Shown here: piece by piece, positions 1,258-54,576 of the stretch
Numbering within the stretch: position 1 is the stretch's first letter
Layout: the number at the start of each line of letters is the position of its first letter
Translations under genes and position numbers: made by a program
Notes under the pieces: model-generated
What the model was told of the DNA's origin: nothing
Seen by the model: only the letters and a program-made list of their open reading frames with translations
Databases searched by the model: none
Virus record (IMG/VR): IMGVR_UViG_3300038548_000082
Span: 30,889-94,888 of that record
Length of the DNA stretch: 64,000 nt
Source: a virus
Taxonomy: Duplodnaviria > Heunggongvirae > Uroviricota > Caudoviricetes
Strand: one strand, 5' to 3'

Positions 1258-2484
1258 ATGGAAACATACTTAGTAGGTGGAGCAGTCAGGGATAAGCTTA
1301 TGGGTTTAACTCCAAAGGATCTAGACTACGTAGTAGTTGGGCAAACACCTGAGAAGATGCTTGAACAAGGCTTCTCTCAGGTTGGTGCTGACTTCCCAGT
1401 GTTCCTACACCCTGAGACAGGTGACGAGTACGCACTAGCAAGGGCTGAGAAGAAAGTTGGAGTTGGTTACACTGACTTCACTTGTGTATGGGACTGTGTG
1501 CCTATCTGGGAGGACTTAGATCGTAGAGACCTAACTATTAACTCTATTGCTATGCATTCTAATGGGGATCTCATGGACCCTTGTAATGGTCAGCAGGATA
1601 TCGAGGATAAGATACTACGACACACCTCAGAAGCCTTCTCAGAAGATCCTGTACGTGTTTTACGTATTGCACGTTTCTTAGCACGTTTTGGCGATGAGTG
1701 GACTGTAGCACCGGAGACTTACGCTCTTTGTCAGCGTGTAGCTTGGGCAGAGTTCAAGCACCTGACACCTGAGAGAGTGTTCAAGGAAATGGATAAGGCT
1801 TTATCTGAGCCTCACCCTTGGCTGTTCTTTGAGTTCCTGCACATGCTTGACTTTCACTGGTTTAAAGAGTTGTGGGATCTAAAAGGTATCCCTCAGCCTA
1901 TCACTCATCACCCTGAGAATTGCACATTTCAGCATACTATGTTAAGCCTTAAGCAAGGTGTGAAGATGAGCTTTTCTAATGAACAGTTGTTCGCTGTTCT
2001 GTGTCATGATCTAGGTAAAGCTCCCTGTTGGAAAGAACGAGGGAATCTACATGGACATGAAAGCGCAGGTATTCCTTTTGTAGAAGCTTTATGTGACCGT
2101 CTTAAAGTTCCCTCATCTTACAGGGAATTAGCTGTGAAGGTGTGTGAGAACCACCAACGGGGTCATAAGGTTATGGATATGAAGCCTGCTAGCATTCATA
2201 ACTTGTTTAAGAAACTTGATTGTATTCGTAAACCTGATATACTGGGTAAATTCACTGAATGTAATTGGGCTGATGCGACTGGTAGGTTGGGGTTTGAAGA
2301 CAAGGATTACCCTCAAAGAGGCTTCTTATTCAGTTGTTTGTTTGCTGTACAAGGGGTAGACACCAAAACTATCGCTGAAGAATGTATTGAAAAAGGTTTG
2401 ACAGGTGCTGACATTGGTGAGAGAATACGTGTAAAGCAAATAGACGCTATTAGAGGAGTTAAGAACACATGGAACAAGAATTGA
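1258..2484 (+). CDS. cca: CCA-adding tRNA nucleotidyltransferase with HD domain
   Basis: N-terminal GGAVRD...DLD head motif and HD motif (LCHDLGK); 408 aa, same size/architecture as bacterial Cca. Confidence 0.85.
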   Translation: METYLVGGAVRDKLMGLTPKDLDYVVVGQTPEKMLEQGFSQVGADFPVFLHPETGDEYALARAEKKVGVGYTDFTCVWDCVPIWEDLDRRDLTINSIAMHSNGDLMDPCNGQQDIEDKILRHTSEAFSEDPVRVLRIARFLARFGDEWTVAPETYALCQRVAWAEFKHLTPERVFKEMDKALSEPHPWLFFEFLHMLDFHWFKELWDLKGIPQPITHHPENCTFQHTMLSLKQGVKMSFSNEQLFAVLCHDLGKAPCWKERGNLHGHESAGIPFVEALCDRLKVPSSYRELAVKVCENHQRGHKVMDMKPASIHNLFKKLDCIRKPDILGKFTECNWADATGRLGFEDKDYPQRGFLFSCLFAVQGVDTKTIAEECIEKGLTGADIGERIRVKQIDAIRGVKNTWNKN

Positions 2485-2918
2485 GAGCATATTTCTTTCA
2501 GAACATGTACTTGCAAGGGATTCATGCAGGTATTCAAAGCCAGCATTGTACTGCTGAGATGTTCTGTAAGTACAGTATCGGTAATGATTTGGATCAACCT
2601 ATGGCAAGAACCTTATATGCTTGGGCTACCTTCCATAAAACAACTATCGTGCTTAATGGTGGCGATGCTTCCAACCTGAAACGTATTGCAACGTTACTGG
2701 ATTCTCACCCACATAATTACCCTTGGACTTACTTCGAAGAAAGTGAAGAAGCCCTTGGTGGTTGTATTACTAACGTGGGGATCATCTTGCCTGAGAAGAT
2801 TTTTAATCACTTTTCTAGTGATGGTGAGATTGTAGAGTGTCCCTACAGTAACACGACATTAACGGAGTTTGAGATTAACTTAGCAATGGAGGTATCACAA
2901 TGCAGGTTGATGAGCTAA
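2469..2918 (+). CDS. hypothetical protein
   Basis: ORF track 149 aa; translationally coupled to neighbours. Confidence 0.45.
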   Translation: MEQELRAYFFQNMYLQGIHAGIQSQHCTAEMFCKYSIGNDLDQPMARTLYAWATFHKTTIVLNGGDASNLKRIATLLDSHPHNYPWTYFEESEEALGGCITNVGIILPEKIFNHFSSDGEIVECPYSNTTLTEFEINLAMEVSQCRLMS

Positions 2919-3421
2919 ACAGTATTGTACAGCACTACGCTGGTTCCTTATCTTATGGGACCAACTTACCCACTTCGGATGTAGATATTCGAGGGGTATT
3001 CTGTGCTGAGCCTAAGAACATTCGTACACCCTTCTACCCTGTACGTGAAGTCACACTACAGGATGAAGAGGATGGTAAGTTATACGAGCTTAGTACATAC
3101 ATGCATCTATACACTCAAGGTAATCCTAATATCTTAGAGACCTTGTGGGTAGACAATACAGATATCATTCAAGGTAGCGATGTTTACTCCTACCTACGAG
3201 GCTATCGTACAGACTTGCTAAGTTCTAAGGTAGCCTTTACCTTTAGTGGTTATGCTATCAGTCAGTTGAAGCGTATCAAAGGTCATAACAAGTGGATAAC
3301 CCAAGAGCAACGTGGGTATGCTAAACTTAGGGCTTCATTACGTTCTGGTGATATTTCTGAGAACCAGATAGTATACCACTTCGGAGAAAAGACTCTAAAT
3401 AAGGTTAAGGAAACAAAATGA
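2900..3421 (+). CDS. predicted nucleotidyltransferase, N-terminal half (pfam10127-like), split gene
   Basis: Motif GSxxYGxxxxxSDVDxRGV typical of pol-beta-fold NTases; stop overlaps HEG start (ATGA). Confidence 0.55.
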   Translation: MQVDELNSIVQHYAGSLSYGTNLPTSDVDIRGVFCAEPKNIRTPFYPVREVTLQDEEDGKLYELSTYMHLYTQGNPNILETLWVDNTDIIQGSDVYSYLRGYRTDLLSSKVAFTFSGYAISQLKRIKGHNKWITQEQRGYAKLRASLRSGDISENQIVYHFGEKTLNKVKETK

Positions 3422-4053
3422 AGTATTATGTGTACACGCTGTCTGATAATCACAAGATTTTTTATATAGGTAAGGGTTCGGGGGACAGGATGTATCGACA
3501 TCTTAAAAAGGTTAAAAGAGGGGCTACAACGGACAATCACCACCTTGACAATAAACTGCAAAAGATGTTACGCGATGGTGTGCAAATCTCATACAACAAG
3601 GTGTATGAAACTGGTGATGAAGGTCTTGCTTATGCTCATGAAAGGGAGCTAGTTGCTAAGGTGGGACTTTCTAATCTCTGTAATATACAAGCAGGGGGTT
3701 ATGGTGGTAACAGTCCCTCACAAGAGACTAGAGACAAAATTAGTGCATCCAAAAAGAGGAAGCCATTGACAGAGGCACACAAACAGAAGTTACGAGAAGC
3801 CAAACTAGGGATAAAACAGACACAGGAAACAAAGGATAAGCGGTCTCTTTCACTGAAAGGTAAGCCACAAACCGATAAACAAAAGGCATCAAACCACAAA
3901 AGGGGTCTTAAGGGTAGAAAACTTACCGAGGAGCACAAGCAGAAGCTACGGGATGCGAAGTTGAAAAACCCGACTAAATACTGGCTAGGAAAAGAAATCC
4001 CAGAAGAAACTAAACAGAAGATATCAACTACTTTAAAGGGGACTGAGAAATGA
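3418..4053 (+). CDS. GIY-YIG homing endonuclease with NUMOD3 repeats
   Basis: KYYVY...IFYIGKGSGDRMYRH GIY-YIG motif; C-terminal repeated KGxKxxEEHKQKLR NUMOD3-like units. Confidence 0.8.
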   Translation: MKYYVYTLSDNHKIFYIGKGSGDRMYRHLKKVKRGATTDNHHLDNKLQKMLRDGVQISYNKVYETGDEGLAYAHERELVAKVGLSNLCNIQAGGYGGNSPSQETRDKISASKKRKPLTEAHKQKLREAKLGIKQTQETKDKRSLSLKGKPQTDKQKASNHKRGLKGRKLTEEHKQKLRDAKLKNPTKYWLGKEIPEETKQKISTTLKGTEK

Positions 4054-4727
4054 ATATAACCAAGTTACTCGCTGATCCTGACGTAAGTCTTTTAACAGAG
4101 GAGAAGCCACAGCACAAAGACTACTTAAAGTTGGTGCAGAACTTTACAACGGCTAAGATTCTACCAAGAGAGTTCAACTTTGATTATTTGCGTGGTCACA
4201 GCATGGTACATTATGGTGGTAATACCTTTGGTGTGGATACTGGAGGAAGTGTTAGTGCTGTTACTGTTGATGGAGATTTCAACGTCTCTGCAAAACAAGC
4301 AGAAAGGAACGCTAACTCAGGTCATACACCTAAGTACATAGTCAAGTACCTAGCAGAAGATTACAAGCTTGCTAAGGAGAAGCATTACAACTACTGGAAC
4401 TGGAAGAACAATCGTAATGAGAAAAGAAGTGCATTAGAAGAAGATTTCGGTTATGATACAAAACATGCCATGCACTTAGTACGATTACTACGTATGGGTG
4501 AAGAGATTCTTTCAGGTCAAGGTGTAATTGTTAAGCGTCCTGACGCTCAAGAGTTATTAGACATTCGAGCTGGTCAGTGGAGCTATGAGGAGTTATTAGC
4601 TTACGCTGAGACGAAGGATGAGCTGATTAGAGGCGAGTTGTACAAGAATACAAGCTTACCTAAGACACCTAACATTAAATTAGCTAGCAAGGTCTTGATG
4701 GAAGCTCAAGACATGTGCTGGAATTAA
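4050..4727 (+). CDS. predicted nucleotidyltransferase, C-terminal half (pfam10127-like helical region)
   Basis: KHAMHLVRLLRMGEEIL motif characteristic of the C-terminal region of the same NTase family; start overlaps HEG stop (ATGA). Confidence 0.45.
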   Translation: MNITKLLADPDVSLLTEEKPQHKDYLKLVQNFTTAKILPREFNFDYLRGHSMVHYGGNTFGVDTGGSVSAVTVDGDFNVSAKQAERNANSGHTPKYIVKYLAEDYKLAKEKHYNYWNWKNNRNEKRSALEEDFGYDTKHAMHLVRLLRMGEEILSGQGVIVKRPDAQELLDIRAGQWSYEELLAYAETKDELIRGELYKNTSLPKTPNIKLASKVLMEAQDMCWN

Positions 4728-4984
4728 GAGGAGGGTTCGCAATGGGTGCTGGAGGATTGAGCTTAGCTTGGGCAGTTAAAGCTACCGCAGGTTATCGACT
4801 TGAAAACTATGATGGTGCTTTTATTGTCTACCCCGGTGCTGCTGCTGATTGCAAATCCTACTGTATTCAAGAGTCATTAGAAGCAGTTGTTATTAACGAA
4901 AAAACAGACCAAATAACCTTGGAGAAATACTATGACGCAACAGGAAAAAGGTACATCAATCCTAACTCGAACGGTTATTTTTAG
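4715..4984 (+). CDS. hypothetical protein
   Basis: ORF track. Confidence 0.3.
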   Translation: MLELRGGFAMGAGGLSLAWAVKATAGYRLENYDGAFIVYPGAAADCKSYCIQESLEAVVINEKTDQITLEKYYDATGKRYINPNSNGYF

Positions 4985-5621
4985 TGGGGGTACGATGGTA
5001 CATGTACGTCCTCATTTTAGTTTGTGTGCTCCAGCTTATGGTAAGGTGGGGAGATCCATAGGCGATTTGTTGACATCATGTACTGGTTTTAATAAAGGTT
5101 CACACCTTATCGAAGTCCTCAGTACAAATATGGCTGGTGGTAACCACGGTATTGAAACCAACAACGACCTTGATACAGCTTTGAGTGGGGTTCTGGCAGA
5201 CCCTTTAACCAAAGTTATTGTTATGGCTGCTGCTGTTTGTGACTTCGAGCCACATCATTTAGAAAACTTTAAAATGATTACTCATGACTTCGGAAAGACT
5301 GAAGAACGTCTTAGTTCACAAGACAGCTACTCACTAACGCTAATACCTTCTGCCAAGATCCTTCAACGTATTAAACAGGAACGTCCTGATATCTTTCTGG
5401 TTAGTTTCAAAACTACCTCTGACGAGGACGTGACAGCTTTGATAAGTAAGTCTAAGCAGAACATGAGTGTGACAGAAGCAGATGTGGTCTTTGGTAATGA
5501 TATAAAACGCCATTTTAACCTGTTAGTTAGTGGGGAAAGTATTACCTCTCTTGATAGATCGGGATGTGTGTCTGAGTTGGTTGGTATTCTAAAAGATGTT
5601 GTTGAGAAGTTCGAGGTATGA
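4932..5621 (+). CDS. CoaB-like (DFP / phosphopantothenoylcysteine synthetase family) protein
   Basis: Alignable by eye to E. coli Dfp CoaB domain: TVIFSGGT..VRPHFS..APAYGKVG vs RVLITAGPT..VRYISNHSSGKMG; AAAVCDF vs CAAVADY; NDI vs NDV. Confidence 0.5.
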   Translation: MTQQEKGTSILTRTVIFSGGTMVHVRPHFSLCAPAYGKVGRSIGDLLTSCTGFNKGSHLIEVLSTNMAGGNHGIETNNDLDTALSGVLADPLTKVIVMAAAVCDFEPHHLENFKMITHDFGKTEERLSSQDSYSLTLIPSAKILQRIKQERPDIFLVSFKTTSDEDVTALISKSKQNMSVTEADVVFGNDIKRHFNLLVSGESITSLDRSGCVSELVGILKDVVEKFEV

Positions 5622-5799: not shown

Positions 5800-5900
5800 A
5801 CGAATACGAATGAGAATCATTATCAAACGCGAATGATTATCATTCAAGGTGTGAATACGAATCATTATCATTATCAAACACGAATAAGAATCATTAGCAT
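5800..5900. repeat. AATACGAAT...AATCATT repeat family (4 copies)
   Basis: Repeated AATACGAATgagAATCATTATCAAAC units; inverse of repeats at 13229-13386. Confidence 0.65.
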
Positions 5901-6014
5901 TTAGAAAACACCGCCCACTCTCTCTTCCTCTCTGATGAGATTCCGCTTAGACTTCCCTGCCTACCCCCTCTCAACAAGGCGAACTTCTTTCGCCCTCTCT
6001 CAAGTAGTGGGGCT

Positions 6015-6042
6015 ATCTTAACAGGCTGATAGCAGCTGTCAA
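6015..6042 (-). promoter_or_regulatory. sigma70-like promoter on minus strand (TTGACA-16-TAAGAT) reading leftwards into ORF-free repeats
   Basis: Reverse complement of 6015-6042 gives TTGACAgctgctatcagcctgtTAAGAT; part of 35-bp perfect inverted repeat. Confidence 0.5.
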
Positions 6043-6277
6043 CACTTTATTAAAAAGAATTTAAAATACTTTATTAGTAATGAGAATCATTCGCATTCGC
6101 TAAATAACGCCCACCTTCCCCTCCTCCGTAGTCAGAATGTATAGAGATCATAACATACTGATTAGCCCCGTCAACCACTAATTACAACTAATCACAAATA
6201 AACCTAAATTAAATTACCTATATAAGAAGCAACAACAAATCAAAAGTATTTTAAATTCTTTTTAATAAAGTGTTGAC
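6038..6277. repeat. 35-bp perfect inverted repeat (arms 6038-6072 and 6243-6277) carrying divergent promoters
   Basis: gtcaacactttattaaaaagaatttaaaatacttt vs its exact reverse complement. Confidence 0.8.
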
Positions 6278-6300
6278 TCTCTCTGTAGCTTTGTTAAGAT
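6273..6300 (+). promoter_or_regulatory. sigma70-like promoter (TTGACT-16-TAAGAT)
   Basis: Consensus boxes upstream of ORF 6340. Confidence 0.6.
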
Positions 6301-6339
6301 AGCACCACTTAAACAAAACGACTAAACAGGTACAAGCGA

Positions 6340-6645
6340 ATGATCACTAAAACCTCTATTAATACAACTGTTATTCTAAAGCTTTTAAAAGCCTTTCGTG
6401 AAGCTCAAAAACACGGAATAGCCCATGTTAGGAATAGGAAAGGAAACGCCTTTTTAGCTGTTAGAAAATTCATTGTTAACGGTAAAGTTTTTTTCCAAGT
6501 GTTAGACAAACATGGTAACAATGTTAAAAGGTTGATAACTTCAATGGTTTGCTCTTTTATGAATGCTGATATTGTTTCTCATAATGTGGCTGGCCTTTTA
6601 GTGGATCGTTTAGCCTACCCTTTCCAATTAGGGCAAAGAGCTTAA
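6340..6645 (+). CDS. hypothetical early protein
   Basis: ORF track; own promoter and conserved leader. Confidence 0.5.
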   Translation: MITKTSINTTVILKLLKAFREAQKHGIAHVRNRKGNAFLAVRKFIVNGKVFFQVLDKHGNNVKRLITSMVCSFMNADIVSHNVAGLLVDRLAYPFQLGQRA

Positions 6646-6652
6646 AAAGTTC

Positions 6653-6681
6653 TTGACAGCTAAATAGATACCCTGTAAATT
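6653..6681 (+). promoter_or_regulatory. sigma70-like promoter (TTGACA-17-TAAATT)
   Basis: Sequence boxes. Confidence 0.5.
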
Positions 6682-6711
6682 ACAAACTCAATTAATTAAA
6701 AGGTTTAGAAA

Positions 6712-6855
6712 ATGACTAATTCAGCGATGCAAAAAATCCGTAAACATCAAAAGCCAAAGACTAACAAGGATCTAGTCAAAGAGCATAAGAGCACAATTCG
6801 CAAGGCGAGAAAAAACCGCCATAATCTTTGGATTATCAAAGGAGATTTATTATAA
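6712..6855 (+). CDS. hypothetical small basic protein (47 aa)
   Basis: ATG after promoter; stop overlaps next start (TAATG). Confidence 0.3.
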   Translation: MTNSAMQKIRKHQKPKTNKDLVKEHKSTIRKARKNRHNLWIIKGDLL

Positions 6856-7145
6856 TGACTAATTTTCTAAACCGTAATGAAGTAGACGCCATTTTATTCG
6901 ACTTACAAGGTCAAATGGTAAGTGTTGACTTTATCAAAAAAGATGGAACAAAACGTAAACTTAACGGACAATTAGTACCTAGCCCCGGTAGCCATAATGG
7001 GCATAGTAATCTATTCACTATTGCGCTAGCTAGTAGCAAAAAGGACAATAAAGCATTTCGTTCTGCTAGTCGTGATAAGATTACGCGAATTGCTGGCAAG
7101 GGTAAAGTTTTTGCTGTACGTAGTAGCCTAGCAAGCTTGATCTAA
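6855..7145 (+). CDS. hypothetical protein
   Basis: Internal ATG with GGAG RBS preferred over ORF-track start 6828. Confidence 0.5.
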   Translation: MTNFLNRNEVDAILFDLQGQMVSVDFIKKDGTKRKLNGQLVPSPGSHNGHSNLFTIALASSKKDNKAFRSASRDKITRIAGKGKVFAVRSSLASLI

Positions 7146-7223
7146 GAGGTTTTAGCCCTTAGCCTATGCGATTGTATAGGCTAATACTAAACCCTTTTAA
7201 ACCGCCTTATAGGACGTTCTACG

Positions 7224-7577
7224 ATGTTTGACGATACCACATTAAAAGCAATACATTGTTATAAATCCTTTGAGCAAGATATAAGCCACAATTACAGTTT
7301 TGACAGAAAAGTTGTTATTTTAAAAAGTGTTGACGGCAGCTATAGATTTTGCTATAAACGTGCATTAGACCAAGGTATACGCGCTTTTGATAGTTGCTTA
7401 ATTGTGAGTAGTTCAAACACTATTACCAGTGTTTACACTGTACCTAGTAAGAGGCGGCAAAAAATAGCTAAACAGCTACTATTAGTAGCACGTTTAACAC
7501 TTGGTAGTGTTTACCATAACGACCATTTAACGGTTAGCGGTAAACTATGGCGAGATAGTGTAGAAAACTTAAAATAA
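7224..7577 (+). CDS. hypothetical protein
   Basis: ORF track; contains internal promoter-like TTGACG-17-TATAAA at ~7327. Confidence 0.5.
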   Translation: MFDDTTLKAIHCYKSFEQDISHNYSFDRKVVILKSVDGSYRFCYKRALDQGIRAFDSCLIVSSSNTITSVYTVPSKRRQKIAKQLLLVARLTLGSVYHNDHLTVSGKLWRDSVENLK

Positions 7578-7581
7578 AGTG

Positions 7582-7609
7582 TTGACAGCTACTATCAACC
7601 TGTTAAGAT
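7582..7609 (+). promoter_or_regulatory. sigma70-like promoter (AAGTGTTGACA-16-TAAGAT) + conserved leader
   Basis: Sequence boxes. Confidence 0.6.
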
Positions 7610-7641
7610 AGCTACAACTTAAACAAAGAGAGCAAACAACC

Positions 7642-8325
7642 ATGACTAAACTTACATTAAAAGCTGCTAAAAAATTCGGTGTCGTTACTAAAGGCAATAG
7701 CAAAATTCATGGTTCTACATTCTCTACTGATCCTTATCGTTGCAAGGTGGGATCTAAGCTTGTCAATGTCGAAGGTAGCACTTGCTCTAATTGCTACGCT
7801 CTTAAGCTTGCTAAAGTTTACCCAAGTGCGGCTAAGTCATGGTCCGATAACTTAGACTTATTTAGGGGCGCTGTTTATACTGGTGAGTTGCTAGAATGGT
7901 GTGAAGCAATCGCACATCAAATCAAAATGATTAGCAATCTAAAAGTTAAAAAAGGCGACAAAGGCGCTATGTTTCATCGGTGGTTTACAGCTGGTGATTT
8001 AGACAGTATGGATATGTTGCGCGCTTTTGTTAAAGTGGCTCAATTATTACCTGAAATCGAGTTTTGGCTACCAACACGAGAAAAGGCACTTGTTAGCCAA
8101 TATAAAAACGGCCTTGGTGTTGTCCCTAGTAACATGGTAATACGTCTCTCAAGCGCAATAATAGACGCTAGACCAATACTAGCAGCTAACACTAGCACTA
8201 CGCACAATAAAGGCGCTAAATCATACGGTTTTAAATGCCCAGCTCAAAAGACTAGCGGCAATTGTAACGATTGTACAACATGCTGGAATTCAGACATTAA
8301 AAACATTTCTTATGAAATACACTAA
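7642..8325 (+). CDS. hypothetical Cys-rich (putative zinc-binding) protein
   Basis: ORF track 227 aa; CxxC...C clusters. Confidence 0.5.
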   Translation: MTKLTLKAAKKFGVVTKGNSKIHGSTFSTDPYRCKVGSKLVNVEGSTCSNCYALKLAKVYPSAAKSWSDNLDLFRGAVYTGELLEWCEAIAHQIKMISNLKVKKGDKGAMFHRWFTAGDLDSMDMLRAFVKVAQLLPEIEFWLPTREKALVSQYKNGLGVVPSNMVIRLSSAIIDARPILAANTSTTHNKGAKSYGFKCPAQKTSGNCNDCTTCWNSDIKNISYEIH

Positions 8326-8333
8326 ATAAGTGT

Positions 8334-8362
8334 TTACAAGCCATACTGCACAATGTAGTATG
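8334..8362 (+). promoter_or_regulatory. promoter-like TTTACA-17-TAGTAT overlapping terminator hairpin
   Basis: taagtgTTTACA resembles cassette -35 consensus. Confidence 0.4.
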
Positions 8363-8370
8363 GCTTTATT
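8340..8370 (+). terminator. rho-independent terminator
   Basis: GCCATACT-loop-AGTATGGC followed by TTTATT. Confidence 0.6.
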
Positions 8371-8394
8371 AATCACTAGTAAGGAAGTAAGGAT

Positions 8395-8619
8395 ATGTCA
8401 TTCAGTAGAGATCAAAAGTTTTGCGGTAAATGCGGTAAACCTTGCGAGGTTATCACTATTGACGATGGCATAGGTAGCCACGAATTTTGGGGTAGTGTGT
8501 CAATTCACCATGATTATATTACCGTATCGGATTGCTGTGAGAGTGAACAGTATTTTGATGAAATAGAAGCTTTTGAGGAGCTAGGTGATAGCCACTTACA
8601 AATTGATTTAAAATTGTAA
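8395..8619 (+). CDS. small zinc-ribbon-like protein
   Basis: CGKCGKPC...DCC motif. Confidence 0.45.
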   Translation: MSFSRDQKFCGKCGKPCEVITIDDGIGSHEFWGSVSIHHDYITVSDCCESEQYFDEIEAFEELGDSHLQIDLKL

Positions 8620-8626
8620 TTAAGTG

Positions 8627-8655
8627 TTGACAAGTTAAAAACCGCTTGATAAGAT
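8627..8655 (+). promoter_or_regulatory. sigma70-like promoter (TAAGTGTTGACA-17-TAAGAT)
   Basis: Sequence boxes; stop codon TAA embedded in extended -35. Confidence 0.6.
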
Positions 8656-8687
8656 AGCTACACATTAAACGAAGCGAGTACAAAGTA

Positions 8688-8975
8688 ATGATATATTCAA
8701 CCATTACAACTGTTAAGAAAACTATTAACGTATTACCTCATAAAGTGCCAGCTATCAAAGATGCAGCTGCGAGGGGTGAGCAAGTTTTCTTCACTAATAG
8801 TGGCTATAATGCTAACAAAGGCACGGTACTCTTTGATGGTGGCTTAAATTATCATGTGTATGGTGGTAAACTGGGTCTAAGTCAAGAAACCATTGAACAA
8901 TTACAAGCTAAAGGCTTGGGTATTCTGGACACAACAAAAGGCTTTTTTCAATTCGCGTATTATGAAAATAAGTAA
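8688..8975 (+). CDS. hypothetical protein
   Basis: ORF track. Confidence 0.5.
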   Translation: MIYSTITTVKKTINVLPHKVPAIKDAAARGEQVFFTNSGYNANKGTVLFDGGLNYHVYGGKLGLSQETIEQLQAKGLGILDTTKGFFQFAYYENK

Positions 8976-8983
8976 ATAAATAC

Positions 8984-9011
8984 TTGCTAATAGCTGTCAG
9001 AGTGTTAAGAT
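8984..9011 (+). promoter_or_regulatory. sigma70-like promoter (TTGCTA-16-TAAGAT)
   Basis: Sequence boxes + conserved leader. Confidence 0.55.
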
Positions 9012-9043
9012 AGCTACAACTTAAACAGAAAGAGTATAAGACA

Positions 9044-9436
9044 ATGAACAACCCAAACATGATTAAAACAGCCCGTAATATCCTAGAAACTTCTATCAAT
9101 GCCGTAGATGCTAGCCCTAGCGATTACACGCTAACAGAGCTAAAGGAGCTTATGGCTGAAATTCTAGACAACACAGAGGTTGACTATTGTCTAGAGTTAG
9201 ACGGTTTTGGTGAGGTTCGTTTAATTCATTCAGATGATATGGCTGAAATCTGGACCGAATCACTACTTGAGCAAATTAAAGACTGTTATGAACTTGATAA
9301 GATTCCCGCCTTTGTTTCTATTGATTGGGAACAGACCGTCGAAAATTGCAAGATTGACGGCATGGGTCACCACTTTTCTAGTTATGATGGCAACGAATAC
9401 AGCTCAGGGGACTGGTATATATTCAGAACTAACTAA
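9044..9436 (+). CDS. hypothetical acidic protein
   Basis: ORF track. Confidence 0.5.
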   Translation: MNNPNMIKTARNILETSINAVDASPSDYTLTELKELMAEILDNTEVDYCLELDGFGEVRLIHSDDMAEIWTESLLEQIKDCYELDKIPAFVSIDWEQTVENCKIDGMGHHFSSYDGNEYSSGDWYIFRTN

Positions 9437-9459
9437 ACCAAGTTATTTTAACAAAGTGC

Positions 9460-9488
9460 TTTACATTGTGAGAGCACTTGATTAAGAT
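9460..9488 (+). promoter_or_regulatory. promoter (TTTACA-17-TAAGAT) with inverted repeat AAGTGCT/AGCACTT in spacer
   Basis: Sequence. Confidence 0.5.
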
Positions 9489-9520
9489 AGCTACAACTTA
9501 AACAAAACGAGTACAGCTCA

Positions 9521-9604
9521 ATGATTAATCTAAATAATGTAGTTAAAGGTGTTTCTTGGGGTTCTATCTTGTTGACAGTAGTCACCGTAGCTTTAGGGGC
9601 CTAA
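9521..9604 (+). CDS. 27-aa hydrophobic peptide
   Basis: ATG directly after conserved leader; single TM-like segment. Confidence 0.3.
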   Translation: MINLNNVVKGVSWGSILLTVVTVALGA

Positions 9605-9608
9605 AACA

Positions 9609-9749
9609 ATGTTAGATACTGCAATTACGCTAACAGGTCTATTTGTCTTTGTAATGGTTTTCGCTATTGGTGGTAGTGTTATTACCAACAAACTGTTAAA
9701 ATCGCTTAAAACGCCTCTCAGGGGCGCTACAAAGCATCCAACTAATTAA
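9609..9749 (+). CDS. 46-aa small membrane peptide
   Basis: ATG 5 nt after previous stop; hydrophobic N-terminus, basic C-terminus. Confidence 0.3.
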   Translation: MLDTAITLTGLFVFVMVFAIGGSVITNKLLKSLKTPLRGATKHPTN

Positions 9750-9837
9750 GAGAATGTATAGAAAAAGCTTGCTATTAGGATTAGTAAGCTTTAATATGTA
9801 GTTTCTTTCAACAGTAAAGCAAAAGCGAGTGCAATTT

Positions 9838-10068
9838 ATGAGTAATGTCGTGTTAGTAGCAACTAGTTATACAGGTTTTTTAAATTCTCAAAAAGCTGTC
9901 AAGGAAGCTTTTGATAATGACAAGGATTTCATTATTAAAAACGTTACAGACAGGTACTATGGTAAACCCTGTAATAAGTCGGATTTGTTACAAGCTACAG
10001 AGTATAATTGTGCTCAAATTTATTATGGTAAGAATAACGCTAAAGTGGTTTGTATTTATTTCAAATAA
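9838..10068 (+). CDS. hypothetical protein
   Basis: ORF track (start moved to MSNVVL). Confidence 0.45.
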   Translation: MSNVVLVATSYTGFLNSQKAVKEAFDNDKDFIIKNVTDRYYGKPCNKSDLLQATEYNCAQIYYGKNNAKVVCIYFK

Positions 10069-10071
10069 GTG

Positions 10072-10099
10072 TTGCATTGTTCTCAAAAGTCTGTAATAT
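10072..10099 (+). promoter_or_regulatory. promoter (TTGCAT-16-TAATAT), leader family 2 (CTTACTTACTTA)
   Basis: Sequence. Confidence 0.5.
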
Positions 10100-10133
10100 A
10101 GATCTTACTTACTTAGACAAGCAAGGCAGCGAC

Positions 10134-10253
10134 ATGAAACAGCATACTAAAGACATACTAGGCGGATTCGTTCAAGTGGTTGAAGTGGCTGACCATGGCA
10201 TAGTAGTTAGCTTGGTTGTCAAGTGTTTATTTCTTACAATTATTATTAAATAA
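10134..10253 (+). CDS. 39-aa small hydrophobic protein
   Basis: Internal ATG downstream of promoter. Confidence 0.35.
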   Translation: MKQHTKDILGGFVQVVEVADHGIVVSLVVKCLFLTIIIK

Positions 10254-10366
10254 GCCGCCACTTTGAGAGAGTGCGAACAGGTCGCTAGTAGGGATTCCAA
10301 ATCTCGAACGCGCCTTATTAGGTATGCTCAAAGCTGGCGCAATTATTATTAAATAGGGTTGACATT

Positions 10367-10618
10367 ATGAAAGCTTTAGTAACTATTAATTCAGTATTGA
10401 CTGTTATCATTAGTGGTCGTGGGTGTCAAGAAATTGACGATAAAACAGCTAAGTTAGTTAGTGCTGGCAATCCTGATAATAAGATTAATAGCTGGTATGT
10501 TGAATATGAGAAAAAGTCAAATACAGCGCCAGTTATCAGTATCCATAAAAACGCTAGTTTGGATCTTTACAAACAAGCGTATGAGACAATCGAAAACTTC
10601 CATAAATATCGTAAATAA
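10367..10618 (+). CDS. hypothetical protein
   Basis: ORF track. Confidence 0.5.
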   Translation: MKALVTINSVLTVIISGRGCQEIDDKTAKLVSAGNPDNKINSWYVEYEKKSNTAPVISIHKNASLDLYKQAYETIENFHKYRK

Positions 10619-10621
10619 GTG

Positions 10622-10648
10622 TTGACAGCTTAAGCCAAGGTCTATAAT
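10622..10648 (+). promoter_or_regulatory. promoter (TTGACA-15-TATAAT), leader family 2
   Basis: Sequence. Confidence 0.6.
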
Positions 10649-10690
10649 ATAGGCCTTACTTACTTAAACAAGCAATCAGGATTACAGAAT

Positions 10691-11086
10691 ATGAGCATTT
10701 TTACTAAATCAACAGTTATCGCATCCTACCCAGCATATGACATTATTAAGCGCGAAAAAGCTAGACAAGGTTATGTCAATCTTGTAGCTGGTGAGACCTT
10801 GGTAAAGTCTGACCATTTAGGCAGCTACAAAATCAATAGTGCGGTATCTTATGCCCTAGAGAATAATCAAGATCCTATTGAATCGTATAATCAGTGCCTG
10901 TCTAATGGTGACGATACCCATTGGATTAACGCTCAAGCGTCTAGCCTATCAGATTGCAAGGAAGCTAAAAAAGTTCATATTGAGATTGACTTTGAAACAA
11001 CTTATATGTTTGAGGGTAAATGGTTCAATATTAAGCCATCTGCTAATAACAACCTAAGGTTAGTACCGGCAACTTTTATCTTGTAA
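10691..11086 (+). CDS. hypothetical protein
   Basis: ORF track. Confidence 0.5.
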   Translation: MSIFTKSTVIASYPAYDIIKREKARQGYVNLVAGETLVKSDHLGSYKINSAVSYALENNQDPIESYNQCLSNGDDTHWINAQASSLSDCKEAKKVHIEIDFETTYMFEGKWFNIKPSANNNLRLVPATFIL

Positions 11087-11093
11087 TTAAGTG

Positions 11094-11122
11094 TTGACAA
11101 GGGGCGCAAGCCCCTATACTAT
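11094..11122 (+). promoter_or_regulatory. promoter TTGACA-[AGGGGCGCAAGCCCCT hairpin]-TATACT
   Basis: Sequence; GNRA-loop hairpin inside spacer. Confidence 0.55.
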
Positions 11123-11153
11123 AGCTACTCATTAAACAAAACGAGCAAAGATT

Positions 11154-11531
11154 ATGAAAACCTTTATTTTCTGGAATCCTGAAAAAGTTAGCGGTAACAC
11201 TACTCTCAACGGTTATACGTGTACCGTAGGGGAGCTACAAACCTTTGAAGCGGAGGAGAGTATTAGTATTAGTAGCACTCTATCGTTAGTTGATGAGGAG
11301 CAAGCCAAGGCGTTTGTAGAAGCTGTTTTATGTGAAGGTGACTTAGAGCTACGCTATGCTGAAATAATAGACTTCCAGAAGCTCTTATCAGTAATGGAGT
11401 GCTTGATTGATACAGTACAGAGTACTACAGACCTAGAAAATGTCTATGATGACAGCAAAGAACAGTCTTTTAGCTGGCAGGAAGTTATGGAACAGTACCA
11501 AGTATTAAAAGTACTTGCTAAGGTTGAATAA
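11154..11531 (+). CDS. hypothetical acidic protein
   Basis: ORF track. Confidence 0.5.
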   Translation: MKTFIFWNPEKVSGNTTLNGYTCTVGELQTFEAEESISISSTLSLVDEEQAKAFVEAVLCEGDLELRYAEIIDFQKLLSVMECLIDTVQSTTDLENVYDDSKEQSFSWQEVMEQYQVLKVLAKVE

Positions 11532-11534
11532 GTG

Positions 11535-11563
11535 TTGACAAGGGGCGCAAGCCCCTATACTAT
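11535..11563 (+). promoter_or_regulatory. promoter TTGACA-[hairpin]-TATACT (duplicate of 11094 module)
   Basis: Near-identical 60-bp module. Confidence 0.55.
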
Positions 11564-11594
11564 AGCTACTCATTCAACAAAACGAGCAAAGACT

Positions 11595-11858
11595 ATGAAA
11601 ACTTCAAAAACCGTATTGTCAGACGCGATTTTCTACTGCATGCAAAGTGAAAAGCTTTGGGACCATAACGACCAAAAATTTAAGGTTTGTGTTGACGTTT
11701 TGCAGCTGCCTTGCTTGATTGATGGGGTGACTGTTAGCGGTCAAAGCATCGTTGACTATGCTAGTGACATGAAAGAGCTGTATGCTGAGGGTAGCTACAG
11801 CCCTAGCGAGTTTCATGACATGTTTATAAGTGTTGAGAATTTCTTAGAGATCCAATAA
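11595..11858 (+). CDS. hypothetical protein
   Basis: Internal ATG after promoter/leader; ORF-track start 11532 would read through promoter. Confidence 0.5.
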   Translation: MKTSKTVLSDAIFYCMQSEKLWDHNDQKFKVCVDVLQLPCLIDGVTVSGQSIVDYASDMKELYAEGSYSPSEFHDMFISVENFLEIQ

Positions 11859-11865
11859 ATAAGTG

Positions 11866-11896
11866 TTGACAAGGGGCTAGCGCCCCTATACTATGG
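11866..11896 (+). promoter_or_regulatory. promoter TTGACA-[AGGGGCTAGCGCCCCT palindrome]-TATACT
   Basis: Sequence. Confidence 0.55.
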
Positions 11897-11928
11897 TTAC
11901 TCTTTAAACGAATACAGGAATTAAACAA

Positions 11929-12099
11929 ATGTACTGCATTTACAGTCTAAACCATACTAGCCAGAAAACATATCTCACAGACTTGGATGGCGAGCGTGTA
12001 ATCTACACAAAGGAGCTAGCAGAGCAACAACTAGAAATCTTTGAACAATTACCGTATAAGTCTTTGTATGTTACTTGGCATATGATCAAATATAGCTAA
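11929..12099 (+). CDS. 56-aa hypothetical protein
   Basis: ATG after leader family 1 variant. Confidence 0.4.
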   Translation: MYCIYSLNHTSQKTYLTDLDGERVIYTKELAEQQLEIFEQLPYKSLYVTWHMIKYS

Positions 12100-12125
12100 T
12101 ACAATCCAGCGAAAGCCTACAAAAC

Positions 12126-12155
12126 CTCTAGTGGTTATCTGCTAGGGGTTTTTCT
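12126..12155 (+). terminator. rho-independent terminator ending early cassette
   Basis: CCTCTAG-loop-CTAGGGG + TTTTT. Confidence 0.6.
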
Positions 12156-12181
12156 ACATCTAGTGCCTACCAACAGTCTAT

Positions 12182-12218
12182 ACCACAACATGTAGTATGA
12201 TACCATATGTTGTGGTAC
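12182..12218. repeat. 11-bp inverted repeat hairpin (TACCACAACAT / ATGTTGTGGTA); partial third copy at ~12311
   Basis: Sequence; also CTACATCTAGTG direct repeats at 12154 and 12237. Confidence 0.6.
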
Positions 12219-12887
12219 AAGTGAACCAATAACACTACATCTAGTGGTATATAAAAACTCTGTTTAATATAACAAAACGTTCTAGGTTAATTTATAACCA
12301 CTACCACTACATGTTGTGGTTTGCAAGTTATTTTTAACTATTATGAACTGTATTCTAAAATAGTGTGGTACAATCTCTATAAGGGTTTTTATAAGGTCTT
12401 ACAAAGCAGTTAAACGCACTATAAAAAGGTTTGTAAGCGAGTATAGCAGCTCCTCAAGAGAATAGATATACCCATAAGGCATAGCCAAAGGGTATAGAGT
12501 GTAAATACTATAAGAGACGTTTAAAGGCCTTTAAAGAGTATGATATTAAATAGGCCTTTTAAAACGTTTTAAGTAGAGTAAAACTTAATCACTCTAGTAT
12601 CGGCTTTGCCTACTACCTCTATTAATACTAGCCTTATAGCGAATAGGCGAGCCGTTAAAGCTCTTATAAGCGAGTTTGCCTAGCATCCTATAAAGAGGGT
12701 AGGGTATAAGCTAACATTGCTTACAGGCTACTATAGGGGCTATGAGAGTTGTCAAGTGTTATTAGCTGCTAATATGAGTTGTAAATTCTTCTACATTGTC
12801 TCTTATTCTCTCTTATGGGTTAGACCCCCTCACATCTTTCCACATATGTCAAGCTTTATTTTAATTATTTCCTCTCGTTAATAAGTG

Positions 12888-13340
12888 TTGACAATACCCT
12901 ACCAGCATGCTAGGCGTATCACTCTAGCTGCTAAGCAATTACCATGCCAGAACTTTCCAATAGTGTGAGCATACTAACAGCCCCTTGTCAACCCTTAATT
13001 AATCCTTGACAATACCCTTGCCCTATGCTAGGGCTATTCCAATCCTCATAGCACACACAAGGCCCCTTGTCAACCCTTGACATTATGTTATCAGTATGCT
13101 ATGAACATCGGTATAGTGTGAGCATACTCTACACTCTATGTCAACCCTTGACAGTATGCTGATAGTATGCTAGTGATGATGAGGTGTTGACAAGGAGTTA
13201 ACAGTATGCTAGCCACAGCATGAGAATGATTCGTATTAGCCATATGATAATGATTCGCATTCAACTAATAATACTTGACAAGGCGATGATAGTATGATAG
13301 TGATAATTAATAGTTGACAAGGCATTGATAGTATGCTAGG
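12888..13340. repeat. array of ~10 units TTGACA-N11-(G/C)(T/C)ATGCTAG, 7 direct and 3 inverted
   Basis: Direct units at 12888, 13006, 13077, 13148, 13187, 13275, 13314; inverted (CCCCTTGTCAACCCTT ... GAGCATACT) at ~12966-12993, 13046-13078, 13121-13150. Confidence 0.75.
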
Positions 13341-13386
13341 AGGATGATGAGAATGATAGTGCGAATGATAATGATTCGTATTCAAT
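13229..13386. repeat. AATGATTCG(T/C)ATT repeat family (inverse orientation of 5800-5900 family)
   Basis: GCGAATGATAATGATTCGTATTC (13362-13384) is 20/23 reverse-complement match to 5853-5875. Confidence 0.65.
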
Positions 13387-17758: not shown

Positions 17759-17952
17759 GTTATCTCCCCACGACCTTTAACAGTCTCTGTACCTGTGTCA
17801 TCAGGACCACCTGTAGCCTGTTCCCAACATACTCCCATAATAAAGCCAATAGCTAACACCGCAATAAAGCTTAAACTTAAAATCAAACCCATATCAACTC
17901 TCCTTAAATATTGATGCATAGATATTATGCACTTGTTTTGTAATCCTACCAC
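17752..17952 (-). CDS. small membrane protein
   Basis: ORF track. Confidence 0.3.
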   Translation of the reverse strand: MVGLQNKCIISMHQYLRRVDMGLILSLSFIAVLAIGFIMGVCWEQATGGPDDTGTETVKGRGEITC

Positions 17953-18499
17953 CGTTTAAGTGGTCTAGACGCTGTAAAAGCACCATAGCTTCGTTATTGT
18001 CTCTCAAGTTGTAAGTGGGTATACCTAATTTCATAGCTAGGTTAACAGCAGTCCTAGTCCCACCAAGAACTTGACCATACTCATCTGTTGGTGCGTAGTA
18101 GACTACAAAATCACTCTTAACCTTCTCCTTACCAAGCACCTGAAAGACGTTACGAGCGTGGAAAGCTTGTGTCATATCATCCATCTTGTCGAATTTAGGT
18201 AGAACCTCAGACTTTATCAACTGTTTCCTCGCCCATTGGAAAGCTTTATCATTCAAAGTCAAGTAATTGACACCATCAATGTTAGTAGCCTTCCTAAAAC
18301 CACCCCAAGGTAGGTAAATTGATGTCTTATTAGGTGAAATGCTTGCAGCACCTCTCTCAAAGTTAATATCACTACCAGATGCATGACCTGAACGCAGCAC
18401 TAAGCCCGCATGAGCAAGGTGAGCAGCAATAGCCACTTGAGCGAAAGCTACTTCTACGGGTACTCCCTCTTCCCTACAACCAATACCTGTATAAAACAT
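17894..18499 (-). CDS. DprA/Smf-like Rossmann-fold (SLOG superfamily) protein
   Basis: LRSGHASGSDINFERGA resembles DprA SGxAxGID..AHxGAL nucleotide-binding motif. Confidence 0.45.
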   Translation of the reverse strand: MFYTGIGCREEGVPVEVAFAQVAIAAHLAHAGLVLRSGHASGSDINFERGAASISPNKTSIYLPWGGFRKATNIDGVNYLTLNDKAFQWARKQLIKSEVLPKFDKMDDMTQAFHARNVFQVLGKEKVKSDFVVYYAPTDEYGQVLGGTRTAVNLAMKLGIPTYNLRDNNEAMVLLQRLDHLNGGRITKQVHNIYASIFKES

Positions 18500-21171: not shown

Positions 21172-21287
21172 AACCACTCTTGAAGAAAGAAATCCAAAGT
21201 AACTTAACAGAAACTAAGGAGGACGATATGCAAATCGGGGGCTAAAGACCCTCAGCCAAGAAAAGTAGAATTAACTGTTGACAGTGA

Positions 21288-21315
21288 GTAAAAACGTGTT
21301 ATACTGTGCAACATA
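21288..21315 (+). promoter_or_regulatory. promoter (TTGACA-16-TATACT) upstream of tRNA-Lys
   Basis: Sequence. Confidence 0.6.
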
Positions 21316-21376
21316 ACTTAAACTAACCCATAAGGAGGGTTTCAATGAAACAATCAGACAAACCCAATAAACTTAT

Positions 21377-21452
21377 GGGTGTGTAGCTCAATTGGTAGAG
21401 CAGGGAGCTTTTAACTCTCAGGTCGTCGGTTCAATCCCGACCACACCCACCA
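21377..21452 (+). tRNA. tRNA-Lys (anticodon TTT)
   Basis: Manual cloverleaf; GGGTGTG/CACACCC acceptor, loop CTTTTAA, CCA encoded. Confidence 0.85.
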
Positions 21453-52085: not shown

Positions 52086-52249
52086 AAAACAAACGAGGGT
52101 TTACCCTAATTGAACTTATGATTGTTGTTGCTGTTATGGGGATTCTGGCATCAGTGACAGTTCCAGCTTATGAAGATTATCAAGCACGTCAAAACGGCAC
52201 AATGATTTCTTCTGAGAAAAGTGTTGACAACGGTATGATGCTTCAGTAA
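52082..52249 (+). CDS. 55-aa type IV pilin-like (prepilin) peptide
   Basis: MKNKRG|[31 protein letters not shown]: class III signal with G-1, F+1, E+5; AGGAGG 6 nt upstream; ATGA overlap with rnlA stop. Confidence 0.55.
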
Positions 52250-52252
52250 GAT
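52224..52252 (+). promoter_or_regulatory. promoter AAGTGTTGACA-17-TAAGAT (within 3' end of pilin-like ORF)
   Basis: Same extended -35 as early cassette. Confidence 0.55.
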
Positions 52253-52304
52253 ATACAAACTTTAAACTTAACTATTAAAATTAACTAACAAGAGGAAATA
52301 TTAT

Positions 52305-53544: not shown

Positions 53545-53606
53545 TTCTTGACACTAACCTTATTTTGTGTTTATATAAACTTACTTAAACAAAACGGAGA
53601 TTCAAT

Positions 53607-54515: not shown

Positions 54516-54576
54516 TTTACATCTAATCCCACTTGTGGTTTAATAGCTTCACTTAAACAGAACGGAGAAACAAAGT

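Follow-up and report, generated by a model that had tools for sequence, protein, structure and literature searches.

Promoter-early stem-loop-like units in a putative early-gene region of an uncultured myovirus lineage

Seventeen small, unrelated open reading frames (ORFs) of 27 to 227 amino acids (aa) were found on the plus strand at positions 6262-12099 of a 64-kb stretch of viral DNA (the window: positions 30,889 to 94,888 of IMG/VR record IMGVR_UViG_3300038548_000082), together with ten copies of a repeated promoter-leader unit and three looser promoters between them. This cassette has the appearance of a hyperplastic early-gene region, in which ORFans occur singly or in groups of two to four, each preceded by a conserved unit. 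The units probably combine several roles, as early promoters for the host polymerase, short accessible leaders, insulating hairpins and recombination linkers. The region seems to be composed of cassettes of the promoter-early stem-loop (PeSL) type in a new phage lineage; the layout itself was already published for T4-like phages.

Anatomy and statistics of the unit

Units spanned 70-80 bp and were conserved up to the ATG of the following gene, or through codon 3 in units 8 and 9 (numbering as in Table 1). They opened with an A/T-rich, stop-codon-rich stretch, for which a consensus of 20 units from two phages read TATTTTAAATAAGTG upstream of TTGACA, and continued in the order AAATAAGTG, TTGACA, a spacer of 16-17 bp (often forming a hairpin), a -10 box (TAAGAT, TACTAT or TAATAT), AGCTAC, AACTTAAACAAARCGAG, 8-10 nt and ATG. 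In the same consensus, spacers often ended in CTGT, which creates a TGn extended -10, and AGCTAC was followed by AACTTAAACAAA(A/G)CGAGTA, then by 8-10 nt and ATG. The -35 box was TTGACA in seven of the ten units, and six units matched 10 of the 12 sigma70 consensus positions.

A first-pass annotation of the window had described more than 12 units sharing an extended -35 and a leader. The repeated modules proved real, but only ten of them share both features, the other three (6653, 8333 and 9769) being variants. Its statement that almost every small ORF has its own near-consensus sigma70 promoter agreed with what was found for 13 of the 17 ORFs (exceptions: 6855, 7224, 9609 and 10367). The annotated -10 box TAAGAT was recovered as well, while the alternative TATACT had to be replaced by TACTAT with a 17-nt spacer, which brings AGCTAC into register. 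Embedding of the upstream stop codon TAA in the extended -35, also announced there, was seen in four of the ten units (7582, 10072, 10622 and 11535, as TAAGTG or TAAAGTG) and not elsewhere: the stop was located 4-5 nt further upstream in five other units, a distance of 23 nt separated unit 9460 from the stop before it, and no gene preceded the first unit (6273).

The recurrence of these sequences was far from random. The exact 11-mer AAGTGTTGACA was encountered seven times on the plus strand between 7577 and 12883, once at 52219 (plus strand) and once on the minus strand at 6037, while ~0.03 exact matches were expected in 128 kb. With up to two mismatches, 47 matches were obtained against 28.3 +/- 5 in shuffled sequences, none of 100 shuffles reaching 47. 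Leader family 1 (TAGCTACNNNTTAAACRAA, up to three mismatches) gave eight matches, seven of which in the cassette, against 1.9 expected, and leader family 2 gave two against none expected. A profile constructed from the window units retrieved ten full-length copies at 6262-11922 and 11 independent copies in a related phage contig (REL, see below) which was not used in building it. The structural block at 25-48 kb was devoid of units in this profile scan, as opposed to ten within the 5.8 kb of the cassette.

Neighbouring units formed sub-families (11094/11535/11866; 10072/10622; 7582/8627/8984/9460). The near-identical duplication of modules 11094 and 11535 that had been noticed at first pass corresponds to units 8 and 9, which agreed in 73 of the 76 positions that begin with TAAGTG and end with the third codon; their flanks were unrelated. 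Solo copies of the extended -35, each with one mismatch, were located within ORFs at 6920-6930, 7325-7335 and 11828-11838, where ~0.05 would be expected in 6 kb; the copy at 7325-7335 (plus strand, inside W7224) was followed by TATAAA 17 nt downstream.

Stems were present in units 11083 (z = -2.35), 11524, 11855 (GGGGC..GCCCC), 9449 and 10611, while units 6262, 7571, 8616, 8973 and 10062 folded no better than shuffled sequences. The stem of unit 10 was that of unit 8 with a different loop. In the variant unit at 8322-8372, both promoter boxes were included in a terminator-like hairpin with a 13-bp stem, followed by TTTATT (-18.3 kcal/mol, z = -4.4). Relatives displayed stems of different sequences at the same place of the unit.

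Two further candidate features were discarded. The TTGACAG/CTGTTAA palindromy of many units was regarded as a by-product of the -35 box and the TGn extended -10 and not a separate element, and stops in all three frames within the 20 nt ending at the -35 were found in six of ten window units but in none of ten REL units.

Phage lineage

The window belongs to a tailed phage with a contractile tail. Among its genes were those of the large terminase, the portal, the major head protein, the tail sheath, the tape measure and the baseplate. It also encoded a helicase, a DNA ligase, an RNA ligase, a CCA-adding enzyme, a nicotinamide phosphoribosyltransferase and 16 tRNAs. The large terminase was at most 52 % identical to that of any of 50,697 sequenced phages; the nearest ones were Aeromonas Plateaulakevirus and rV5-like phages, not T4-like phages (Straboviridae). 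A genome of ~95 kb was deduced, since the exact protein of cassette ORF W6855 was found on a 94.9-kb contig. The source appears to be a ~95-kb virulent non-T4 myovirus, distantly related to Plateaulakevirus, PWH3a-P1 and rV5-type phages, and its lineage is one without a sequenced isolate. The cassette itself gave no megablast match among the 50,697 phage records, and only tRNAs exceeded the Rfam threshold between 5 and 25 kb of the window.

Relatives and conservation of the unit

A DNA pattern scan of IMG/VR yielded REL (IMGVR_UViG_3300037628_000218, a 93.8-kb contig) and the more distant L022 (IMGVR_UViG_3300037587_000312, 121.7 kb). A search with the W6855 protein returned 11 homologs and led to contigs L023, L024, L026, L029, L030 and L031. 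Besides the 11 copies in REL, the profile detected eight in L023, five in L026 and two to five in each of L029, L030 and L031; three looser ones were present in L022. The unit family is thus present in at least seven related metagenomic phage contigs. Within 10809-12365 and 17797-18489, L022 had three promoters combining a TAAGAT -10 with an ATCTTAA(A/T)C start, as well as a homolog of W7642 (59 % identity) that stands behind another promoter/terminator; the signature formed by the -10 and the initial transcribed sequence therefore extends beyond the immediate lineage. A separate leader pattern scan of metagenome contigs produced 12 single-match loci devoid of promoter context, one of which (L015) was eukaryotic-looking; these were taken as chance matches.

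Seven orthologous ORFs of the window and REL were 40-77 % identical at protein level, and their third codon positions were identical at a frequency of only 0.42 over 544 codons. The corresponding figures for three orthologous units were 26, 27 and 30 of 32 positions (81-94 %) from -10 to +20, against 6-10 of 16 in the spacers, which indicates purifying conservation of the former across phages.

These figures bear directly on the possibility that one promoter-gene module was recently duplicated in tandem and then diverged, which the first-pass annotation had itself named as the way in which leader conservation could be explained away. The sub-families formed by neighbouring units are what such an origin would leave behind. 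On the other hand, no paralogy was detectable among the 17 cassette ORFs, the unit flanks unrelated genes elsewhere, and it was maintained in phages close to synonymous saturation (42 % identity at third codons). Recent tandem duplication can therefore be excluded as the sole cause and, as a general explanation, is extremely improbable. Duplication is refuted for the whole module; the units by themselves have probably undergone local duplication or gene conversion.

Gene content at the units

The cassette was delimited by two landmarks shared among relatives, the left one being a conserved non-coding block which includes a leftward twin promoter. The distance between them was highly variable, with ~8 ORFs in 2.9 kb for L026, ~15 in 5.5 kb for L023, 17 in 5.8 kb for the window and ~24 in ~9 kb for REL. 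W6340, W6712, W6855 and W7224 formed a core operon encountered in nearly all relatives. Downstream of it, W7642 was present in L026, L029, L030 and L022 and absent from REL and L023; W8395 was translocated in L023, where it sits before the W6855 homolog; the homolog of W11929 in L031 adjoined a homolog of REL_5098; and eight window ORFs were without homolog in any fetched relative. The variation in gene content between relatives that had been anticipated at first pass, with junctions kept, was hence observed as presence/absence, replacement and translocation.

Five junctions that contain a unit are flanked by a shared gene on one side or both (7224/7642, 7642/8395, 8395/8688, 8688/9044 and 9044/9521), and each of them was broken in at least one relative. 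By comparison, the unit-less junctions 6712/6855 and 6855/7224 were the most conserved ones, being kept in five and seven fetched relatives, respectively. Islands of homology amid the shuffled cargo were confined to the units. Homology between the window and REL passed through unit 2 and ended at the ATG of W7642, and unit 5, together with its spacer hairpin, matched L023:12111 at ~95 % identity between neighbouring genes that were unrelated on either side. As the relatives compared here display 55-85 % protein identity, in contrast to the nearly identical pairs of the original PeSL papers, individual events were not reconstructable.

A second variable spot was noticed upstream of the cassette. 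The gene block 2469-5621, which includes a homing-endonuclease-like ORF (PHROG 314, 3418-4053) and a nucleotidyltransferase-like gene (4050-4727), had no counterpart at the corresponding place in REL.

Leaders and translation initiation

Provided that transcription starts 7 nt after the -10, the leaders would be 25-34 nt long. They had been announced as AC-rich and devoid of a Shine-Dalgarno (SD) sequence, and neither description could be maintained: they were A-rich (49 % A, 19 % C), and a minimal SD (GAG, AGG or GGA) was found 8-10 nt before the ATG in all 29 units examined from four phages, so that they are better called SD-poor. Predicted pairing with the anti-SD was weak, at -2.2 to -4.5 kcal/mol, compared with a median of -6.45 for 36 other window genes and -2.9 for random positions. 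Initiation regions following the units were predicted to be nearly unstructured, with a mean folding energy of -1.5 kcal/mol versus -4.3 for other genes and -6.3 for the background.

Such leaders raise the question of a specialised translation enhancer, in which a conserved AC- or A-rich leader would replace the SD in the manner of the epsilon motif of T7 gene 10 (UUAACUUUA); enhancers of this type are placed with respect to the ribosome-binding site and work by complementarity to 16S rRNA. The parallel is a short A/U-rich motif, here AACUUAAAC, upstream of the ribosome-binding site of a phage leader, and the A content, the near-background anti-SD pairing and the scarcity of structure all agree with it. 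The motif is nevertheless of another sequence, and the minimal SD in 29 of 29 units argues against replacement. Moreover, in longer leaders (32-42 nt) TTAAAC stayed 6-7 nt after the -10 and the SD-like triplet stayed by the ATG, while the distance from TTAAAC to ATG varied; in REL:5044, TTAAAC was even duplicated, with one copy at each anchor. The motif is thus positioned by the promoter and not by the start codon, and promoters elsewhere in the genome are followed by it as well. The epsilon-like enhancer suggested by the first-pass annotation is weakened accordingly, and we consider it improbable. Its fixed distance to the -10 and its presence outside the cassette suggest that TTAAAC is a promoter-linked initial transcribed sequence of host-type promoters in general, and it does not appear to be a cassette-specific enhancer positioned on the ribosome-binding site.

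Pairing of the leaders with putative transcripts of the neighbouring ORF-free DNA (5880-6012 and 6079-6146, minus strand) was discarded, duplex energies being similar to those of shuffled leaders (z from -1.6 to +2.3).

Comparison with known systems

PeSLs of T4-like phages are conserved elements of ~100 bp in which a region rich in A/T is followed by a strong early promoter of the sigma70-like type, a stem-loop, an SD and ATG (Arbiol et al. 2010, PMC2839356; Comeau et al. 2014, PMC4122927). The stem-loop, generally of the GGGG..CCCC type, is located between -35 and -10, overlaps either box or lies beside them (PMC2839356). PeSLs are found between ORFans in hyperplastic regions and at borders of insertions, deletions and replacements, and they can recombine into mini-circles (PMC2839356; PMC4122927).

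The units described here share with PeSLs the A/T-rich stretch, a near-consensus -35/N17/-10, a ribosome-binding site with ATG, conservation over ~70-100 bp and an intergenic position between small ORFans, and they likewise coincide with insertion, deletion and replacement borders between relatives. Units 8-10 (TTGACA-A-GGGGCGCAAGCCCC-TATACT) are textbook examples of the subclass with a stem-loop between the boxes, and the solo -35 copies inside ORFs resemble the 'half' elements described for PeSLs. A BLAST search of sequenced phages with the consensus unit pointed to early-promoter regions of the T4-like phages PEi20, PM2, KLB31 and phiAS5. The T4-type early promoter of Edwardsiella phage PEi20 displays the extended -35 AAATAAGTGTTTACA, in common with the AAATAAGTGTT(G/T)ACA of the unit, and the extended -35 encountered here (AAATAAGTGTTxACA) resembles a T4-type early promoter.

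Differences were also apparent. The phage does not belong to the T4-like group, its units have a minimal SD (GAG), and their block from -10 to +20 is exceptionally conserved and also used by promoters beyond the variable region. A convincing stem-loop was found in only about half of the units. All sequence-level PeSL features thus seem to be present except two, namely the stem-loop, restricted to about half of the units, and the T4-like host. Recombinational shuffling at conserved promoter/leader sequences, as put forward at first pass, gained support from the relatives, but the idea restates the published PeSL model.

Other systems share part of the layout. Morons of lambdoid and other phages, also discussed in PMC2839356, are genes inserted between two genes with their own promoter and terminator. 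The present cassettes resemble them in being small and autonomous, in having a promoter each and in some cases a terminator, and in occurring in some relatives but not in others. Morons differ in that they have no shared conserved flanks, the flanks here being a repeated unit that would be able to mediate exchange. Integron cassettes, which are promoterless and bounded by attC sites beside an integrase and attI, likewise form arrays in which a recurring element stands between small ORFs that are unrelated and can be exchanged. In the present case, however, the cassettes possess their own promoters, the recurring element is a promoter and leader and not attC, and exchange is presumed to be homologous and not site-specific. 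No integrase was found among the flanking ORFs scanned (part of the window's ORFs), and no attI was evident beside the array. Clustered strong early promoters of virulent phages are represented by the T5 early promoters, with their conserved transcribed regions, and by the SPO1 host-takeover module. They have in common with the units many near-consensus host-type promoters, short operons of small early genes and conservation into the initial transcribed region. They are described as regulatory features of single genomes, whereas comparative evidence of cargo being shuffled at promoters, as seen here, is the aspect specific to PeSLs.

Proposed function of the units

In the functioning that we favour, unmodified host sigma70 RNA polymerase would fire all units immediately after infection. 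Each transcript would start with a short (25-34 nt), A-rich and unstructured leader, whose weak SD would be compensated by accessibility. Hairpins in or across the promoter would attenuate upstream read-through or stabilise the 3' end of the upstream transcript, and the cassettes would thereby be insulated. Finally, the dispersed stretches of near-identity, 50-75 bp long, could act as linkers for the phage recombination machinery, and ORFan cargo could be deleted, inserted, replaced or moved with its expression left intact. Promoter activity, early timing, the effect on translation and the recombination mechanism are inferred from the sequence features described above.

Several observations weigh against this interpretation. 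Promoter activity, transcription start sites and early timing were deduced from consensus matches. Hairpins folded better than shuffled sequences in only about half of the window units. Some breaks in synteny occurred where there is no unit (9521/9609 in comparison with REL and, in L029, an insertion that follows the homolog of W7224). The majority of relatives are short contigs from metagenomes, and only in REL, L023 and L026 does the lack of a gene carry information. Lastly, the same promoter and motif were encountered in conserved parts of the genome, and conservation of the unit could thus be purely regulatory, with recombination being incidental.

According to this last, purely regulatory alternative, early promoters would have to display the same sequence to the host polymerase, possibly together with a phage factor, while cargo would vary through ordinary illegitimate recombination in which the units take no part. 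Candidate factors would be a repressor or operator protein acting on -12 to +20, or a nuclease or translational repressor reading the common RNA 5' end. The strongest conservation was indeed displayed by the asymmetric sequence TAAGAT-AGCTAC-AACTTAAAC, from -12 to ~+20, far above that of the spacer and the neighbouring codons, and this block recurs after promoters beyond the variable region and in the distant L022. Regulatory constraint would not, however, lead one to expect that neighbouring units have identical spacers, that different phages share a spacer subtype at non-orthologous positions, that -35 fragments stand alone inside ORFs or that homology ends exactly at unit borders, and the regulator it calls for is still a hypothetical candidate. 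A purely regulatory repeat is consequently rather unlikely. The two views are non-exclusive, as regulatory constraint would maintain the homology needed for the proposed recombination.

The block from -12 to +20 (TAAGAT-AGCTAC-AACTTAAACAAARCGAG) was conserved far beyond the needs of a sigma70 promoter. This conservation extends to five or more divergent phages, and the block is present at promoters all over the genome. That it is the recognition site of a dedicated phage factor is conceivable, though very doubtful. If true, the factor could be a global regulator or nuclease that targets every early transcript by way of the shared 5' end or, alternatively, a site-specific recombination helper, in which case the system would be an integron-like exchange system with an attachment site doubling as promoter.

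Cassette genes, outside promoters and flanking elements

Features of the cassette and promoters of the same class are gathered in Table 1.

Table 1. Repeated units, promoters, ORFs and related features of the window
Feature	Position	Strand	Description
Leftward twin of unit 1 promoter	6007..6053	-	TTGACA, 16 nt spacer, TAAGAT; profile E = 6e-9
Unit 1	6262..6339	+	TTGACT, 16 nt spacer, TAAGAT, agcacc, ACTTAAAC leader (33 nt)
W6340	6340..6645	+	101 aa, isoelectric point (pI) 11.1; core gene; homologs in REL, L023, L026, L029, L030
Variant promoter	6653..6711	+	TTGACA, 17 nt spacer, TAAATT; without family leader; 10/12 consensus positions
W6712	6712..6855	+	47 aa, basic; core gene
W6855	6855..7145	+	96 aa; most conserved cassette gene; 11 homologs, 58-100 % identity
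W7224	7224..7577	+	117 aa; core gene
Unit 2	7571..7641	+	TTGACA, 16 nt spacer, TAAGAT, agctac, AACTTAAAC leader (26 nt)
W7642	7642..8325	+	227 aa, Pfam GP88 family PF17338; accessory gene
Variant unit	8322..8394	+	TTTACA, 17 nt spacer, TAGTAT; strong SD; without family leader
W8395	8395..8619	+	74 aa, CxxC, acidic; homologs in six relatives
Unit 3	8616..8687	+	TTGACA, 17 nt spacer, TAAGAT, agctac, ACATTAAAC leader
W8688	8688..8975	+	95 aa; homolog in REL only, 36 % identity
Unit 4	8973..9043	+	TTGCTA, 16 nt spacer, TAAGAT, agctac, AACTTAAAC leader
W9044	9044..9436	+	130 aa, pI 4.1; unique to window; no PDB/Pfam match
Unit 5	9449..9520	+	TTTACA, 17 nt spacer (hairpin GTGCT..AGCAC), TAAGAT, agctac, AACTTAAAC leader
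W9521	9521..9604	+	27 aa, hydrophobic; homolog in REL only, 56 % identity
W9609	9609..9749	+	46 aa, hydrophobic; without own promoter
Degenerate unit	9769..9837	+	TTGCTA, 17 nt spacer, TAATAT; leader 3' half only (AAAGCGAGTG, 7 nt, ATG)
W9838	9838..10068	+	76 aa; unique
Unit 6 (leader family 2)	10061..10133	+	TTGCAT, 16 nt spacer, TAATAT, agatct, TACTTACTTAGAC leader
W10134	10134..10253	+	39 aa, hydrophobic; unique
W10367	10367..10618	+	83 aa; unique; no family unit upstream, 113 nt non-coding DNA
Unit 7 (leader family 2)	10611..10690	+	TTGACA, 17 nt spacer, TAATAT, aggcct, TACTTACTTAAAC leader (34 nt)
W10691	10691..11086	+	131 aa; unique
Unit 8	11083..11153	+	TTGACA, spacer hairpin GGGGCGCAAGCCCC, TACTAT, agctac, TCATTAAAC leader
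W11154	11154..11531	+	125 aa, pI 4.1; unique
Unit 9	11524..11594	+	near-identical copy of unit 8
W11595	11595..11858	+	87 aa, acidic; unique; contains solo -35 copy 11828-11838
Unit 10	11855..11928	+	TTGACA, hairpin GGGGCTAGCGCCCC, TACTAT, ggttac, TCTTTAAAC leader
W11929	11929..12099	+	56 aa; last cassette gene; 54 % identical homolog in L031, other cassette position
Terminator-like hairpin	12127..12157	+	CCTCTAG..CTAGGGG then TTTTTCT; closes cassette; read from sequence
Promoter and leader motif	52219..52304	+	AAGTGTTGACA, 17 nt spacer, TAAGAT, 7 nt, CTTTAAAC
Further outside examples	570-634, 21273-21346, 53548-53606, 54516-54576		promoter plus ACTTAAAC arrangement

The degenerate unit at 9769 was a sequence reading, its 8 of 12 consensus positions lying under the threshold of the promoter scan. 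Searches against PHROGs and Pfam left 16 of the 17 ORFs without informative family match, the remaining one being assigned to GP88, a family of unknown function, and a PDB sequence search with the cassette proteins returned no match better than E = 0.09. With AlphaFold, the mean predicted local distance difference test (pLDDT) score was 56 for W9044, modelled from its single sequence, and 51 for W6855, modelled from an alignment of 11 sequences; both are too low for fold searches. A role of these genes in host takeover or anti-defence, as suggested at first pass, is conjectural. The ATG of W6855 overlaps the upstream stop codon and is preceded by a real SD (GGAG). No family promoter was present in the 113-nt ORF-free segment between W10134 and W10367 (10254-10366), which contained inverted repeats rich in GC (GCGCC..GGCGC); the start of W10367 is 2 nt past a TTGACA.

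Outside the cassette, promoters with the same block stood before tRNA, helicase and other genes. The recurrence of the leader core upstream of tRNA-Lys, pointed out at first pass, was located at 21308-21325, before a 13-codon ORF (21346-21387) with a strong SD (AAGGAGG). This ORF is preceded by a family promoter and runs into the 5' end of the tRNA-Lys gene (21377-21452). Promoters of the same class (20711, 21139 and 21273) seem to drive the tRNA cluster.

To the left of the cassette, the upstream half of unit 1 was one arm of a perfect 35-nt inverted repeat (6038-6072/6243-6277). The leftward twin promoter, conserved in REL, points into ORF-free DNA, as does a second one at 6174 (TTGACG, 16 nt spacer, TATGAT; the first is at 6042). 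Both putative leftward transcripts (5880-6053 and 6079-6174) end in a similar segment of 48 nt (5883-5930 and 6079-6126, 75 % identical), and the first, including a GGGCGA..TCGCC hairpin, was conserved in REL (L005:9211-9440). They are possible phage small RNAs, with a fold z-score of only -1.2 and no Rfam match.

Repeats were encountered on both sides. Tandem GAATACGAATCATTATCAT repeats at 5800-5900 (plus strand) on the left faced three copies of the reverse complement ATGATAATGATTCGTATTCAA at 13220-13385 (plus strand) on the right; these inverted arrays bracketing a 7.5-kb early region could be protein-binding sites, be origin-like or mark a domain boundary. Directly past the cassette terminator, 12160-12330 contained ACCACAACATGTAGT palindromes (12181-12198 with 12200-12217) and a 15-nt perfect inverted copy (12306-12320). 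Further on, at 12880-13350, a dense second repeat, TTGACA-N12-TATGCTAG, was present in six copies on the plus strand and three on the minus strand, its 12-nt spacing being too short for sigma70. This array, located in a 2.2-kb ORF-free gap before a block of minus-strand genes, is possibly one of iterons or operators; a homologous start of it, TAAGTGTTGACAATAC, was found at L026:4758.

Significance

The eight related contigs constitute a natural comparative series, in which a conserved four-gene core is followed by a variable tail of ~4 to 20 ORFans between fixed landmarks. The conserved initial transcribed sequence combined with a minimal SD represents a compact, testable expression element. 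The PeSL principle, by which conserved promoter/terminator linkers both express ORFans and help to shuffle them, would hereby be extended beyond T4-like phages. That it is found in a myovirus lineage which is unrelated to these and uncultured suggests a general way of achieving rapid turnover among early genes, a class which includes host-takeover and anti-defence functions.

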